A stretch of 64,000 bases of DNA from Promethearchaeota archaeon (GCA_048939625.1 JBHLPH010000001.1:96001-160000), one strand, 5' to 3'; numbered from the stretch's first letter, positions 47,411-53,605 are shown. Notes: generated by a model not told the origin, from the sequence alone. Translations and numbers: made by a program.

Positions 47411-49264
47411 TTAGTATTCGAAGGCGCGTATTGTTTTCTTAATGGGTTCAATGATTTGACCTCGATGTACAAGTTGCCAGATTTGGTTGATGTCCCTGTG
47501 AAGCAAATAATCTTGAGATAATTTATCAATTTGGGTTGACTGGTCTTTGATATATCTAGAAACAACCTCACGAACCACATCATAAGCTAGTTGTGAGCCG
47601 TCTCCTAAGATTATAGTTTTTGATAATCGGCGTATATCGACTCCTTGAGCTGCACAGAGAATTTCAATAGCGATGATGTGTTCCACATTTAGGAGGATTT
47701 CCTGAGTTTGGCGAGCAGCTATAGTGCCCATGCTTACATGATCTTCCTGATTGGCTCCTGTGGGAATGGAACGAATACTTGAAGGGGTGGCTAAAGTCTG
47801 GCATTCGGCGACTAGAGCAGCAGCCGTAATTTGTGCCAGTCCAAGACCAAAATGCACTCCTTGATCAGCAAGCGTAGGATGAATAAGTAGGAGAGGCAAG
47901 CCATTGCTAAGTTTATCATCAATTAAGCGGGCAATTCGACGTTCCGCAATGCTTCCGATACTGGTTAAGGCAATTCCGAGAAAATCCATAACCGCTGCAA
48001 TAGGTTGCCCATGAAAGTTACCTCCTGAAATAAAAATTTTCGATTGAGGGAAGATCAAGGGATTGTCTGTTGCCGAATTTATTTCAATAGCCACAATTTG
48101 CTCAGCGTAATCTAACGCATCTCTGGCAACGCCTATGACTTGTGGGGTACAACGAATTGAATACGCATCTTGAACACGCCTAATTTGAGTAGCAGCAACA
48201 AGGGCGGCTTCAAACGCGTCATCCGAGATCCCTAATGCCTCGAGATGAGTCTGGATGCTTTTACGTTTCTTCTTCAGCAGCTTTGCTGATTCTGTTGGTT
48301 CAACCACGATTTGGGCATCCAAAGAAATTACTGCGTCAATGCTTTGTTCAAGTATAGTTTTAATGGTTTCAGGATCTTTTCCAGACGGAACTTTGAGCGT
48401 GGTGTGAAACTTCTCTATCGCTTTATTAGCTAAATGGGCTCGTTTTCGTGAAGTCACCACTTGTTGGCTACCCATTAGAAGAGCAGTAAGATTGCTGGCA
48501 GATTGACATTGACCAGGGTGAGGCCGGATTTGATGGATCCTAGGATCAAAGGCGTCTAAAACAGCTTCGAGTGCTTCCATTGAGAGAGCGGCAGCAGCTT
48601 CTGCGGATGCAATAAGATTGCGGGCGTCTGCAATTGCTAGAGCAGCAATCGCGGTCATAATCTGTGTTCCATTTATGAGTGCAATACCTTCCTTTGGTCC
48701 AAGTTCAATAGCTTTTAACTTCGCCTGTTTTAGAGCTTCTGCGCCTGAGAGGACTTTACCACCGGATTCAGCTTCCCCCTCGCCGATGAGCACGAGAACC
48801 ATATGTGAAAGAGGAGCTAAATCACCACTGGCTCCCACTGAGCCTTTCTCAGGTATAATCGGATGTATCCTCTTATTAAGGAGAGCAATTAGAAGCTGAA
48901 GCGTTGTCAATCGAATACCTGAGTGACCCTTAGCCAAAGTATTCGCTCGTAAAAGCATTGCCGCTCGAACGACCTCGGTGGGTAAAGGTTTTCCCACCCC
49001 AGCTGCGTGGCTAATAATTAGATTACGCTGTAATATACGAGCCTTATCCTCTGAGACGATAACCTCACTAAAGGGACCGAATCCGGTTGTGACTCCGTAA
49101 ATTACCTCACCTAAATCTATCCATCTCTGAATGAGCTTCGCAGCGTCTTTAACCTTCTTTTCGGCTGCAGGGGCTAATTTCACTTTTGCTCCATGACGGG
49201 CAACAGCTACTACTTCGTCAATCGTTAGTGAGTTCCCGTTAATCACGATTTGTCCGGCGCTCAT
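47411..49264 (-). CDS. hutH: Histidine ammonia-lyase with an internal insertion
   Basis: YGVTTGFG, specificity SH (LIISHA), MIO-forming GASGDL, VQDAYSIRC, GGNFHG and NQEDHVSMG motifs. Confidence 0.92.
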   Translation of the reverse strand: MSAGQIVINGNSLTIDEVVAVARHGAKVKLAPAAEKKVKDAAKLIQRWIDLGEVIYGVTTGFGPFSEVIVSEDKARILQRNLIISHAAGVGKPLPTEVVRAAMLLRANTLAKGHSGIRLTTLQLLIALLNKRIHPIIPEKGSVGASGDLAPLSHMVLVLIGEGEAESGGKVLSGAEALKQAKLKAIELGPKEGIALINGTQIMTAIAALAIADARNLIASAEAAAALSMEALEAVLDAFDPRIHQIRPHPGQCQSASNLTALLMGSQQVVTSRKRAHLANKAIEKFHTTLKVPSGKDPETIKTILEQSIDAVISLDAQIVVEPTESAKLLKKKRKSIQTHLEALGISDDAFEAALVAATQIRRVQDAYSIRCTPQVIGVARDALDYAEQIVAIEINSATDNPLIFPQSKIFISGGNFHGQPIAAVMDFLGIALTSIGSIAERRIARLIDDKLSNGLPLLLIHPTLADQGVHFGLGLAQITAAALVAECQTLATPSSIRSIPTGANQEDHVSMGTIAARQTQEILLNVEHIIAIEILCAAQGVDIRRLSKTIILGDGSQLAYDVVREVVSRYIKDQSTQIDKLSQDYLLHRDINQIWQLVHRGQIIEPIKKTIRAFEY

Positions 49265-49386
49265 TTCTTTCACCAGTTTTCTATCCTGATTGCCTACAAC
49301 ACCTAGACTAAAAAAGATTCATCTATTACTGGCAATCTGCCGAGATGATATTGAAACGTCTTTGAAGCACTAAAGGATCGAGGAAG

Positions 49387-50994
49387 TTAATTTTTCTGAT
49401 ACAAAGTAATTGCGATTTGACTAATTCCGCCCCATTTAGTTTCCTTTCCGGAGGGATAATAGGTTTCAATCACAATAGAATCTTGGTTCATAATAAGCTC
49501 GAGATCTTCAAGCATACGAAGTTGTTCCGCAACATCGACAGCTCGGTAGATGAGTTTTCCTCGAGCGCGGATAGTCACTGACCCCTTTCTCCGTATTTGA
49601 TGCTGGGCAGCTCGTACATATTCAATGGTACGCTTCTTACCAACATATACGATGTCTTCAATCCACTTAGGATCTGTAATGACATGTGTGGAACTTGGGG
49701 AAGTAGTATGTTTAGAGATTGATTTGACCAGTGGCTTAGGTTTGACAAGTGAGGAGAAGCCTAAAAGAGGTGGGGCAACTATTTCCTTACGGTCGATTGC
49801 CGGAACCATTTCTCCCTCTTCAGAGACTGGGATTGCAGCAAGAGGTTCAACATCCTTCGCTAAAAAGGCGTCAAATTTCGCAATCTCTTCATCAAGGAGT
49901 TCCATCGTAACGCGATGTTTTGGTTTCCAACTTTCAATCCTTTCGATGATCGTGTTGATGAGTTCTTGGTTTCGTGTGAAAATTCCGGCTTCGTCACTGG
50001 AAAACCAGCTATGTGTTGTAAGATTTTGCGATGACACTAAGGCTGCTTTGTTATCGACTATAATACAATTAGCATTTAGCTTTGGACAATTTTCGATTAT
50101 AACTCGGTCAGAAAGCAGACTTTCAAGTGCTTCAGGATCCGATTGCTGATTTGCCCAATTCCGCCAATTAAGCGTAGTGATGAACCTAACTTGAACGTCA
50201 CGAGGAATGATGCTAAGGAGATACTCGACGATATCGTTTGTGATGAAAGGGGACATTAACATGACTGTATCTTTGGCAGAGGATAAGAGGCCATGAACTA
50301 TGTCATGTAATCCATTCGATGTATTTACGAATATGCTTTCTGTGTTGAGGGGCACTTCTGATGAGAAGGTATAGATTTGATTTGGTTGAGGATATTCCTT
50401 AGATTCCCCGTAAAAGGCAGAGATGTACTGTTGGACTTGATCCACAATCTTCGGATCTGACGAAATTATAGCTAAATCGTGAAAGACGGTGGTATTTTTT
50501 GCCGATAAGTTAGCACAACCGATAGCCACGCGCTGGTCAGTGCCAAGAATTTTAAAATGAATACGAGGACGGTACTCAATTTTGATTCTTCGGTCAAGTT
50601 GTGTTGCAGTCCGTTTCAGGGTCTCCGTCGCTGATTCATTAGCTAAAATTATACGAATAGTTGCCTCTTCGTTAATCCATCTTAGAAGATTTTTGAAGTA
50701 AAATGCGGGTATATGTTGGAACCCAAAGTATGCGATTTTTTCAGCACTTTTTACTAATATTGTATACTCCGATTCAATTTTTATCGATGCCAAATAAATC
50801 GGGGCTCTAGTTTGTCTTTCTTCTGCGACTGAAAGTAAATCAACAATTTTGGGTAAAACATGCTTCTTAATTAAGGGATTAAATTCCCACAAAGCCATTA
50901 GAATTACTGAACCGAATATTAGAATAGCTGCTACGAGGGGAAACATTTTGGAAATACTCGCCCCAAACCTGGAAATTCGACCCACATTTGTCAA
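49387..50994 (-). CDS. N-terminal TM + two PLD-like domains + C-terminal Alba domain
   Basis: HFKILGTD...GCANLS; degenerate NANCIIVD...SSQNLT; VYVGKK..IEYV...VTIRARGKLIYRAVDVAE (Alba). Confidence 0.8.
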   Translation of the reverse strand: MTNVGRISRFGASISKMFPLVAAILIFGSVILMALWEFNPLIKKHVLPKIVDLLSVAEERQTRAPIYLASIKIESEYTILVKSAEKIAYFGFQHIPAFYFKNLLRWINEEATIRIILANESATETLKRTATQLDRRIKIEYRPRIHFKILGTDQRVAIGCANLSAKNTTVFHDLAIISSDPKIVDQVQQYISAFYGESKEYPQPNQIYTFSSEVPLNTESIFVNTSNGLHDIVHGLLSSAKDTVMLMSPFITNDIVEYLLSIIPRDVQVRFITTLNWRNWANQQSDPEALESLLSDRVIIENCPKLNANCIIVDNKAALVSSQNLTTHSWFSSDEAGIFTRNQELINTIIERIESWKPKHRVTMELLDEEIAKFDAFLAKDVEPLAAIPVSEEGEMVPAIDRKEIVAPPLLGFSSLVKPKPLVKSISKHTTSPSSTHVITDPKWIEDIVYVGKKRTIEYVRAAQHQIRRKGSVTIRARGKLIYRAVDVAEQLRMLEDLELIMNQDSIVIETYYPSGKETKWGGISQIAITLYQKN

Positions 50995-51119
50995 TATGTG
51001 CTTATTTTATGTTTTGGAAGGATATCGTGTTCTTTAGACATTTAACTGAACGTCTATAGTTTATGTGCTCCTTCTAGGATAAATCATGAACTAGGCTGTA
51101 AACCTCACGAAAAATTAGG

Positions 51120-52766
51120 TTATTCCAGTCGAAGATACGAGTGAGCGGACCAACTTAGGAGGATAATTACCAAGCAAATTGTGTAGGGAGTAACAAGAAG
51201 TGAGCTCAGGAGCATCAGTGGCACACCGCCAGGAAGAAATCCGAGCTGGAAGATGAGAACAGGGATGATCGCCATCCACGAGATGACTGGGAAGGTTATC
51301 ATGAGGGCAACCGGGGTTTCATTTTTTGCACGTGAGGCGTACGGATAGCGGCTGCCTAGACCTACGCCAATTGCCGTTGCAATAAGAATAGCATGAGGAA
51401 GGATAGCTAGCCCAACCGTGAGTAGGCTCAGGCTTCCCAAAATAACTGCGAAATAGATTGCAAAGGGAATGGCAAGGCAAATGGGTGTGATGAGTAGTTG
51501 GATGTATTTAATGAAGGTAAACCGTAATGGAGCTACCGGTGCTAATCGAACGAGATGGATTGAGCCGTATTCGCCTTGGAAGGGATCAGAAGAGGCGATG
51601 GCTAGCAGCGGAATGATGACAACAAGAAGAATGGCGTAAAGAGTTTCCATGAGGGGGATGAACTCAGGAGGAATAGGAAGCATGGATCCAAAGGCAGGAG
51701 CTAGATAGATGAAAAGCAAGGCGAAGACGAAATTGGCGATTAAACCGAAGATATAGAAGGCTTTTCCGGGTTTTCGGAGTCCTGTGATGAAATCCTTTTT
51801 GAAGAGAGCGTGGAGCGGTGTTTTCGCTGAAGTGAATTGAACGGGAAGACGACTGAAAGCCCCAATTGCTGTGCCTTTGCGTCGTGCCACGACTGCGATT
51901 TCTTCATACATATCAATGGAAATCCTGTCTGTGAGAAACCTAGTAAGAACCAAGATGAGGAAGAAAGTTACAATGAGTCCGAGAAGAACCCAAGGAAGTG
52001 CTGGAAAATAGAGTACTGTAAATGCACCATCGGAACCAGGTAGAGCTCCACTAAACGCGATAGCCACGAGCATGTAGGCTAAATTGTACATTGGCGAAGG
52101 ACTAAGAACTCCATTGACAAGCCAAACGGGAGTTAGCAGAAGAATCGTGCCGACCATTAGAACTGCAAAGAATATTATTCGGAAAATTCTGCGATGCTGA
52201 CGGGGTTGGGATACAAATTTTCTGAGAGCATAGAGCCCATGTGTTGCAATTGCTCCAATTTCAGCCAAAAGGAAAATCATGACAATAAAGAGCATAAACA
52301 TCCCAAAGGTTAACCCATAATTTTGCCCAAAATACCAGAGGATGGGTTGAAATGCCAGGCCTATGTAGACGAAAAGCATTAATCGCCGTGGTATAGACCG
52401 CAGGTATTTTGCAGTGAAATAGACATGACCCTTCATAGGTGCAGGAAATAGGTAATCCACATCTGCGGGTTCTGATTCAGATCCGAGAGGGACGCCCATA
52501 ACAGCTTTTACGATTTGTTGAGCTATTATTAGTGACAATAGGGCGTAAACTATCCAGACCGTGTTGGCCCCAATCATCCCGCTATTAATTATAAGCCAGT
52601 AGAGGGAACCGCGTAGCTGAACAGGAAGTGTAAACATGAACAGCCACAGCAACCAGATGACGAGGGCAATGACGGTCACAGAGATTACTTGAACGGTGAT
52701 GAAAATAGGTTGGAGTATCGATTTACGGAGATAATTCCTTGTTCGTTGAAATTCCCACCGAGCCAC
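51120..52766 (-). CDS. ABC exporter permease (two-repeat multi-TM)
   Basis: DVDYLFPAP...KY and LVRLAPV...KY repeats; adjacent ABC ATPase. Confidence 0.75.
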   Translation of the reverse strand: MARWEFQRTRNYLRKSILQPIFITVQVISVTVIALVIWLLWLFMFTLPVQLRGSLYWLIINSGMIGANTVWIVYALLSLIIAQQIVKAVMGVPLGSESEPADVDYLFPAPMKGHVYFTAKYLRSIPRRLMLFVYIGLAFQPILWYFGQNYGLTFGMFMLFIVMIFLLAEIGAIATHGLYALRKFVSQPRQHRRIFRIIFFAVLMVGTILLLTPVWLVNGVLSPSPMYNLAYMLVAIAFSGALPGSDGAFTVLYFPALPWVLLGLIVTFFLILVLTRFLTDRISIDMYEEIAVVARRKGTAIGAFSRLPVQFTSAKTPLHALFKKDFITGLRKPGKAFYIFGLIANFVFALLFIYLAPAFGSMLPIPPEFIPLMETLYAILLVVIIPLLAIASSDPFQGEYGSIHLVRLAPVAPLRFTFIKYIQLLITPICLAIPFAIYFAVILGSLSLLTVGLAILPHAILIATAIGVGLGSRYPYASRAKNETPVALMITFPVISWMAIIPVLIFQLGFLPGGVPLMLLSSLLVTPYTICLVIILLSWSAHSYLRLE

Positions 52767-52795: not shown

Positions 52796-53560
52796 TTACC
52801 TCCCACGCAGAGTCTGAATATAGTAGTTCTCTAAAGCCACACCGCCTCCAACCTCAGCACGGAGCTCTTGGACCGTTCCTGAAGCAACCTTTACACCATT
52901 TGATAGGATAGTAAATTCATCACTGACTTCCTCTGCAACACTCAAAATATGAGTAGAAAGTAAAACTGTTGAACCATTTTCAGCTAGCTCGCGGATTACC
53001 TGTTTGAGGACATACCCTCCTTCAGGGTCTAATCCATAGAGTGGTTCATCCATTAGCAAAACTTTGGGATTCCGAATCAGCAATCCGGCGAGTAGGGTTC
53101 GTTGTAGCATTCCACGAGAGAGCTCGCCGAGGTATTTGTTTAGAAAACCACCGATTTCAAAGCGATTGATGTATTCAAGTCGGCGTTGCTGAAATTCTTC
53201 TTCCGGCACTTGATATAGACTGCCGATAAAAGAGAGAAATTCATCAACTCTCAGCGTCTCGTATGCTGCAGGGGCATCTGGTAAAAAGCCTAGATTAATT
53301 TTTGCTTGCCAAGATTCTCGAAGCATATCATAACCCATAATGAAGATACTTCCGCGATTGGGACGACTCAATCCGGCAATTAGTCGAAGCGTGGTTGTTT
53401 TTCCGGCTCCGTTTGGCCCAACCAGCGCATGAACAACTCCTTGTCTGATTTTGAGGTTCAGTCGATTTACTGCCAAAACTCCAGGGGGGAAAATCTTACT
53501 CAGACGAAAGGTTTCCAAAGCAGGTATTTCCTTATTCGATTGGTTCGTCGCATTAGCCAT
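52796..53560 (-). CDS. ABC transporter ATP-binding protein
   Basis: GPNGAGKTT, LSRGM, LMDEP..GLDP and STH motifs. Confidence 0.92.
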   Translation of the reverse strand: MANATNQSNKEIPALETFRLSKIFPPGVLAVNRLNLKIRQGVVHALVGPNGAGKTTTLRLIAGLSRPNRGSIFIMGYDMLRESWQAKINLGFLPDAPAAYETLRVDEFLSFIGSLYQVPEEEFQQRRLEYINRFEIGGFLNKYLGELSRGMLQRTLLAGLLIRNPKVLLMDEPLYGLDPEGGYVLKQVIRELAENGSTVLLSTHILSVAEEVSDEFTILSNGVKVASGTVQELRAEVGGGVALENYYIQTLRGR

Positions 53561-53605
53561 CATGTGGACCTCATAGCAGTATTTCAGTCATATAGTAGTC
53601 CCGTT

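Follow-up and report, generated by a model that had tools for sequence, protein, structure and literature searches.

A gene on the minus strand (49387..50946) of a 64,000-nucleotide (nt) stretch from a Promethearchaeota archaeon (GCA_048939625.1, JBHLPH010000001.1:96001-160000; hereafter the window, meaning the whole stretch) encodes a 519-amino acid (aa) protein that comprises, in this order, an N-terminal transmembrane (TM) helix, two phospholipase D domains (PLD-1 and PLD-2), a disordered linker, and an Alba domain. Our best explanation, which we give about an even chance of being right, is that this protein is a domesticated, probably non-catalytic membrane tether for nucleic acid that arose from a defense-type nuclease. 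The domain composition, conservation, motif decay, sister group, and losses were computed; the topology, ligand, lack of catalysis, and role are what we infer. All features of the window described below lie on the minus strand.

Conservation of the fusion and state of the PLD motifs

The same TM-PLD-PLD-linker-Alba layout is found in approximately 22 homologues. A word-indexed search recovered 20 protein clusters at 43% to 100% identity, all of which carry PLDc_2 and Alba, and an independent metagenome contig (run X4, 3218 nt) covers positions 49499-51200, the PLD-linker-Alba junctions included, without indels. The fusion is therefore not an assembly artifact, and its absence from reads and relatives, which a previous reading of the DNA made from the sequence alone (the sequence-only reading) had allowed for, did not occur. 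Mean pairwise identity is 72% for the Alba domain (88% within clade A, the clade that includes the window protein), 70% for the TM helix, 68% for PLD-2, 44% for PLD-1, and 34% for the linker. Evolution has thus been slowest in Alba, PLD-2, and the TM helix; PLD-1 is the fastest-evolving folded domain, though it carries the motif that appears intact. Uninterrupted, full-length frames persist in about 22 lineages, at identities as low as 43%, and about 100 columns are invariant. These features, the strong conservation of Alba within clade A, and the conserved promoter and leader described below argue that the family is under purifying selection, not drift.

Pfam matches the PLD region to PLDc_2 in two stretches (6.1e-19, above the cut-off). 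PLD-1 spans residues ~45-195 (50362..50814), with a PLDc motif match at 146-163 in the numbering of a 535-aa frame, and PLD-2 spans residues ~196-345 (49912..50361), begins with an invariant FVNTSNGL, and has the best PLDc_2 stretch together with a weak DrmC-like match. Foldseek aligns the AlphaFold2 (AF2) model to two-domain PLDs (7e0m, vaccinia F13, PLD3/PLD4, and PssA) over 358-430 columns at E 1e-16 to 1e-13 (best 1.4e-16), and the two domains are therefore modeled as one bilobed unit, in which motif 1 would face a degenerate motif 2 within one chain. Among NCBIfam models, DrmC, DpdK, and NucT are weak matches, MkoB is a further weak match, and no cardiolipin-synthase or Pss model appears at E up to 10. 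The module is probably of a nuclease type (DrmC/NgoFVII/DpdK-like).

Motif 1, HFKILGTD (H130, K132, D137; 50536..50559), is canonical in the window copy, and motif 2, NANCIIVD (50053..50076), is degenerate, just as the sequence-only reading had described them. Neither state is uniform in the family. The His or Lys of motif 1 is replaced in eight of 22 members: the His is Arg in the nearest relative, which is 87% identical, Gln in P0004, and Asn in P0016, and five members have Asn for the Lys. Within clade A, the GSxN signature of this motif also decays. In motif 2, the Lys position is Asn in all 22 members. The His is kept in clade B and in one member of clade A, and in the remainder of clade A this position is Asn (as in the window), Cys, Tyr, Met, or Glu; the Asp and the SSQN that follows are kept. 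Membership in the PLD superfamily calls for two HxK(x)4D motifs, which together bring two His and two Lys into one active site, and this full HKD pair is found in none of the 22 members. In PLD enzymes, one His is the nucleophile and the other the general acid, and both Lys stabilize the transition state. Given these roles, the decay of the motif residues argues that canonical catalysis is not the conserved function of the family. Invariant residues nevertheless persist around motif 1 (R126, R128, F131) and around motif 2 (N293, D298, S305-Q307), which suggests that the pocket is retained in a non-canonical form.

The Alba domain, the linker, and the membrane helix

The Alba domain (residues 428-519; 49390..49665), which the sequence-only reading had called complete, passes the hidden Markov model that it might have failed: Pfam Alba (PF01918) matches at 3.7e-9 with 36.7 bits against a cut-off of 25, and a search with the family profile recovers solved Alba chains, with E 9e-16 to 5e-9 across residues 428-517. 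NCBIfam matches Alba over the entire domain, and its full-length equivalog models remain below the cut-off (38 versus 88-90 bits), as expected for a divergent, fused Alba copy. The AF2 model shows the beta-alpha-beta-alpha-beta-beta order of an IF3-C-like fold (strands 432-434, 456-462, 491-496, and 508-517; helices 440-454 and 463-478), with a predicted local distance difference test score (pLDDT) mostly between 64 and 83. In Alba proteins, the GKK loop after beta1 and the K/R-A-R-G loop after beta2 bind nucleic acid. The corresponding VGKK and (R/K)ARG loops hardly vary in the family: V435, G436, K438, A461, R462, and G463 are invariant, K437 almost so, and in solved Albas the same residues align at these positions.

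Two copies of residues 425-519 were predicted to pair with a score of 0.61, compared with 0.00 for the best control; this shows likeness to Alba dimers rather than binding, and the predictor may be reproducing the Alba dimers that have been solved. Among proteins with solved structures, 20 of 30 that are pairs of one chain attained the mark set for pairing, as did one of 23 that are single chains. At least 96% of contacts recur across the runs, the pLDDT of the partner is at least 80, and the predicted interface is formed by alpha2, beta3, and beta4 (463-478, 488-495, 509-513), lies on invariant residues, and equals the canonical Alba interface. Canonical archaeal Alba (Sac10b; AF1956, 1nfh, and Sso10b, 1h0x) shares with the window domain a full-length domain match, the GKK and KARG loops, and the order of secondary structure, and its dimer interface resembles the predicted one. 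In contrast to canonical Alba, a small, abundant, free-standing protein of ~90 aa, the window Alba makes up only the last fifth of a membrane protein of 519 aa and bears a lineage-specific hairpin, YYPxGKxxKWGGIS (KWGGIS).

A separate, free Alba is encoded in the same genome on contig C70. The fused Alba is 39% to 44% identical to the free Alba of the genus and 32% to 40% identical to the Albas of the sister group introduced below. The free Alba of the genus (L001:3-368, minus strand, on contig C70 and cut by the contig end; L017:1480-1929, plus strand) has an N-terminal tail of ~57 residues that is rich in Lys, Glu, Ala, and Pro and recalls histone tails; the whole protein is 149 aa long in G094. 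The other genus of the same family has a short free Alba of 105 aa (L018).

The overall AF2 model, which was built on 20 homologues, has a mean pLDDT of 72 and a predicted template modeling score of 0.63. It consists of a helix at 2-21, a helix at 23-38, two alpha/beta domains, a long helix at 348-363, a disordered region at 365-430, and the Alba fold. The first of these helices is the TM helix (residues 2-21, FPLVAAILIFGSVILMALWE; 50884..50943), which is supported by hydropathy, the model, and its conservation in the family, and which is absent from the sister group. Its 19-residue Kyte-Doolittle mean of 2.58 (2.35-2.69 in relatives) bears out the hydrophobic helix reported from the sequence alone. 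No residues lie ahead of the helix, and the flank after it contains 2-4 Lys and Arg versus 1-5 Asp and Glu, depending on the member. The part of the protein C-terminal to the helix is probably cytoplasmic, since the soluble sister proteins lack a signal sequence and in view of the known biology of Alba and of DrmC-type PLDs.

The linker (residues 366-427; 49666..49851) is acidic and Pro-rich, and its disorder is reflected in a pLDDT below 50 across residues 365-430; the sequence-only reading had described it as low-complexity. Within this otherwise fast-changing region is a short motif, PPLLGF (residues 392-397; 49756..49773), in which P392, L395, and F397 are invariant and for which the AF2 monomer has no confident structure (pLDDT below 50). 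A possibly related motif, YPxHxGxxLxL, occupies the equivalent place in the sister group. PPLLGF may be a docking motif; plant ALBA domains reportedly recognize a short linear motif found in YTHDF proteins (PMC11649824).

Soluble relatives, losses, and the chromosomal locus

An exhaustive profile search of 1.84 billion cluster representatives with the PLD part alone returned only two representatives of the family. Next in rank (E 1e-47 to 1e-35) came tandem-PLD proteins, 479-736 aa long, which we treat as the sister group. All nine of the sister proteins have HxK in both motifs, at the motif spacing of the window family, and all nine lack an N-terminal hydrophobic helix and a signal sequence. 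They have an acidic linker similar to that of the family, match the PLD domain of the restriction enzyme NgoFVII, and end in either an unassigned domain or an Alba domain, the latter in P0025 and P0028 (26 and 53 bits). These two metagenomic proteins (504 aa and 563 aa) share with the window protein the PLD-PLD module (profile E 1e-40 to 1e-42, over both domains), motif spacing, acidic disordered linker, and C-terminal Alba, but both of their HxK(x)4D motifs are intact, they have no TM helix, and P0028 has a weak TrmB-like helix-turn-helix at its N-terminus. Rather than the ABC-transporter and lyase genes of the window locus, their loci encode TraG, methylase, HerA, NurA, DpdA, or PAPS reductase. 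PLD plus Alba therefore also exists as an apparently active, soluble, conflict-associated protein.

The genes found next to sister-group members encode TraG/VirD4, an N6/N4 methylase, DUF87/HerA, NurA, and DpdA (L022:1-13703), PAPS reductase (L023:1-6572), and a LigD-type PrimPol with a HerA-like ATPase (L014:1-3728). We consider these loci candidates for an uncharacterized archaeal defense or mobile-element module. Because its nearest relatives are soluble, have both HKD motifs intact, and in two cases carry Alba, the window family appears to be a membrane-anchored, catalytically degenerate, chromosomally inherited derivative of soluble tandem-PLD proteins. The Alba domain is too short for a firm tree, and a single origin of the fusion in the family and the sister group could fall either way.

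Other PLD proteins resemble the window protein in part. BfiI is a PLD-family endonuclease with a fused DNA-binding domain. The same is true of the PLD-winged helix (PLD-wH) enzymes Aba4572I and CbaI (PMC11037411). Like the window protein, these enzymes combine a PLD nuclease domain, of the metal-independent type, with a separate nucleic-acid-binding domain for target binding, but they are soluble, bacterial, and have catalytic HKD motifs and a winged-helix or B3-like reader, whereas the window protein has an Alba reader, a degenerate site, and a membrane anchor. The best profile matches to PLD-2 are DISARM DrmC, MkoB/MkoC, and DpdK (PADLOC DrmC 1.4e-13; NCBIfam DrmC 1.1e-7). An identity as DISARM DrmC was rejected: the NCBIfam score of 31.6 bits compares with a cut-off of 133 bits, the window protein differs from DrmC in its two domains, degenerate site, TM helix, and Alba, and no DISARM, Mokosh, or Dpd partner genes occur near the window gene, where the neighbors encode an ABC ATPase, a 548-aa membrane protein, and a lyase.

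In a sample of 400 genomes of the phylum, full-length membrane-anchored copies occur only in the genus of the window (G000, G095, G096, G102, G103, G106); contig ends truncate two more copies, so that G099 holds the first 323 residues and G093 only the Alba part. The usual locus lies between the gene for the 548-aa membrane protein, which is paired with the ABC ATPase, and that for a 620-aa aromatic amino-acid lyase. In G100, the gap between these genes holds a decayed Alba remnant, a 65-codon frame that ends in a stop and in which conserved residues are changed, and in G094 only the last 37 codons are recognizable. In G101 and G104, the flanking genes abut, with no trace of the PLD-Alba gene between them. 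In the lyase tree, G100 and G094 are paired (100/100) inside a clade (100/98) whose other four members all carry the gene, G101 and G104 fall outside that clade, and the gene is present on both sides of the midpoint root. These positions imply at least two losses of a gene that would have been ancestrally present at a fixed locus. The PLD-Alba protein also evolves faster than its flanks (55% to 61% identity versus 72% to 74% for the lyase in the same genome pairs).

The gene order around the PLD-Alba gene is conserved, a HeH-3TM gene included. The 548-aa protein is polytopic and without a Pfam family, and its gene (51120-52766) is paired with that of the ABC ATPase (52796-53563); the pair is kept throughout the genus, even where the PLD-Alba gene is missing. 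The lyase (HAL/PAL family; 47411-49273) is covered by two Pfam stretches, a sign that it may contain an insertion absent from the 466-position model, and is ~620 aa in all relatives. An obligate operon with the HeH-3TM gene, the ABC ATPase, the membrane protein, and the lyase was ruled out: in G101 and G104, the HeH-3TM gene, the membrane protein, and the lyase are all present and the PLD-Alba gene is missing, and in a metagenomic relative (L005) the PLD-Alba gene lies two genes away from its usual place. The neighbors are thus independent of it, because they are kept where it is absent or has moved.

The start of the gene differs from that first assigned. The open reading frame at 49387-50994 is present in the window, but the TTG at 50994, which the sequence-only reading had taken as the start, was ruled out in favor of the ATG at 50946, from which the frame comprises 519 codons and a stop. 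The Met of this MFP... start is common to all relatives (invariant in 20), and the TTG lies only ~8-12 nt 3' of a conserved TATA-like box, between it and the conserved leader, for which reasons the ATG at 50946 is probably the true start and the TTG is probably outside the transcript. It follows from this start that the protein has 519 aa and that the hydrophobic helix is at its very N-terminus.

Three upstream DNA elements are common to eight orthologous loci. The TATA-like box ATAAAATAA (51002..51010), which is preceded by CCAAAA, is a consensus reading ~55-60 nt upstream of the ATG, and its position is kept in all eight. The other two form a probable 5' leader (50957..50978) and are conserved across the orthologous loci: GAATTTCCAG, ~25-30 nt upstream of the start codon, and the Shine-Dalgarno-like GGGGCGAG, a GGGGAG-like element ~12 nt upstream of the ATG. 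GAATTTCCAG is kept across species whose proteins are only 45% to 60% identical and may mark the transcription start or be a regulatory site. It lies at 50969-50978 in the window and at orthologous positions in L003, L004, L005, L007, L008, L011, and L013. An oligo-T run after the stop codon (49310..49315), read from the sequence, is a possible archaeal terminator ahead of the lyase gene. The PLD-PLD-Alba gene thus probably has its own promoter and terminator.

A proposed membrane tether weighed against other roles

As a tether, the protein would be a single-pass membrane protein whose bilobed PLD module, flexible linker, and Alba domain probably face the cytoplasm. Its ancestor would have been a soluble tandem-PLD nuclease with a C-terminal nucleic-acid-binding domain, encoded in archaeal defense or mobile-element islands; in the genus of the window, the TM helix would have been gained, the gene would have come to occupy a fixed chromosomal locus, and the canonical two-His/two-Lys site would have been lost. 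The Alba domains would pair into the usual Alba dimer, the dimer would bind double-stranded nucleic acid or RNA via the GKK and RARG loops, and the TM helix would anchor that nucleic acid, or free Alba, to the membrane, with the non-canonical PLD-2 pocket serving as a binding module and not a cutting one. RNA, DNA, and free Alba are all possible ligands, and chromatin tethering is something that we infer. In a more specific form, which we consider possible but improbable, the protein would be a dedicated link of the nucleoid or RNA to the membrane, built by domesticating a defense nuclease, in which dimeric Alba on a flexible 60-residue leash pins Alba-bound DNA or RNA or sequesters the tailed free Alba.

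Several observations weigh against a non-catalytic tether. The window copy keeps H130, K132, and D137 in motif 1, and clade B keeps both His, so that reduced, residual, or altered phosphodiesterase activity is possible, particularly in clade B. The invariance of the PLD-2 pocket residues N293, D298, S305, S306, and Q307 fits ligand binding and, equally, an unusual catalysis. The charges that flank the TM helix leave the topology ambiguous. Finally, the losses suggest that the gene is dispensable, and an accessory or conflict-related role would therefore fit it better than a core chromatin-organizing role.

The main rival is an active membrane-anchored nuclease or phosphodiesterase that is guided by Alba and, for example, degrades incoming DNA as a defense effector, perhaps only in the members that keep the His. 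We regard this as unlikely. It would agree with the descent from proteins with intact HKD motifs in defense-like contexts, the intact motif 1 of the window copy, the HxK of motif 1 and the His of motif 2 in clade B, and the patchy distribution and repeated loss that are typical of defense genes. However, the second Lys is present in no member and the window copy lacks both His and Lys in motif 2, a relative as close as 87% identity has Arg for the motif-1 His, PLD-1 is the least constrained of the folded domains, and the gene sits at a stable chromosomal locus among housekeeping-like genes, not in a defense island. The sequence-only reading had left two alternatives, a nuclease that needs trans-dimerization and a pseudo-enzyme that tethers chromatin to the membrane; the second is favored here, and the first is disfavored, as the two domains are modeled as one bilobed unit, which makes a trans-pairing of two motif-1 sites unlikely, and as the motif-1 residues are replaced in relatives. 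The same loss of catalytic residues, the two or more independent losses (decayed remnants in G100 and G094, no trace in G101 and G104), and the faster evolution relative to the lyase would also suit a decaying relic of a defense nuclease without current function; set against the open frames, invariant columns, conserved Alba, and conserved promoter and leader that point to purifying selection, a relic seems quite unlikely to us.

The remaining rivals concern the membrane. Vaccinia F13 and PLD3/PLD4 have the same two-lobed PLD fold on a membrane (Foldseek E 1e-15 to 1e-13, TM-score 0.5-0.66 by target). F13 has non-canonical motifs, and PLD3 and PLD4 have a single N-terminal TM helix and act on nucleic acid. 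They nevertheless differ from the window protein in having 9% to 16% identity, no family link at the sequence level, no Alba, and probably a different orientation. In PLD3 and PLD4, which have type II topology, the PLD module is luminal, and a corresponding outward orientation, in which the C-terminal part would bind or process extracellular nucleic acid at the cell surface, would fit the hydrophobic helix at the very N-terminus and the ambiguous flank charge of several members. It is made highly doubtful by a protein that begins with MFP and has no positive segment before its helix, by sister proteins without a signal sequence, and by the intracellular location of Alba and DrmC-type PLDs. We consider very improbable a lipid-directed PLD enzyme, similar to cardiolipin or phosphatidylserine synthases, that happens to carry Alba: a TM helix with two PLD domains is the layout of cardiolipin synthase, and PssA structures are among the Foldseek matches, but the NCBIfam search that detects DrmC, DpdK, and NucT yields no Cls or Pss model, the sister group matches the NgoFVII PLD domain, and the HKD pair that such transferases need is incomplete. 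An assignment as a Cls-type PLD was likewise rejected, with no model match, an incomplete HKD pair, and a likeness only in the layout of TM helix and two PLD domains.

The sequence-only reading had not recognized this architecture, and our searches of the literature on Alba with PLD, HKD, Asgard, nuclease, or HerA/NurA turned up no account of a membrane-anchored PLD-PLD-Alba protein; the proteins of the family are already in databases under generic names. New here are the locus-level series of losses, the gradient of decay between clade A and clade B, the correction of the start codon, and the conserved leader elements. The confinement of the gene to one genus in our sample and its dispensability limit the weight of the finding.

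Alba is treated as a free chromatin- or RNA-binding protein, and a conserved, membrane-anchored Alba would be an unusual route of nucleic acid to the membrane. The family is also a natural example of a defense-type nuclease becoming a probable pseudo-enzyme, with intermediates that are still visible, from soluble, active-looking PLD-Alba proteins to clade B, which has both His, and the decaying clade A. Its hosts are Asgard archaea, the archaeal group closest to eukaryotes, in which links between genome and membrane are of special interest. If the protein is indeed a dedicated link of the nucleoid or RNA to the membrane, it would be a prokaryotic functional analog of the proteins by which eukaryotes anchor chromatin at the inner nuclear membrane.

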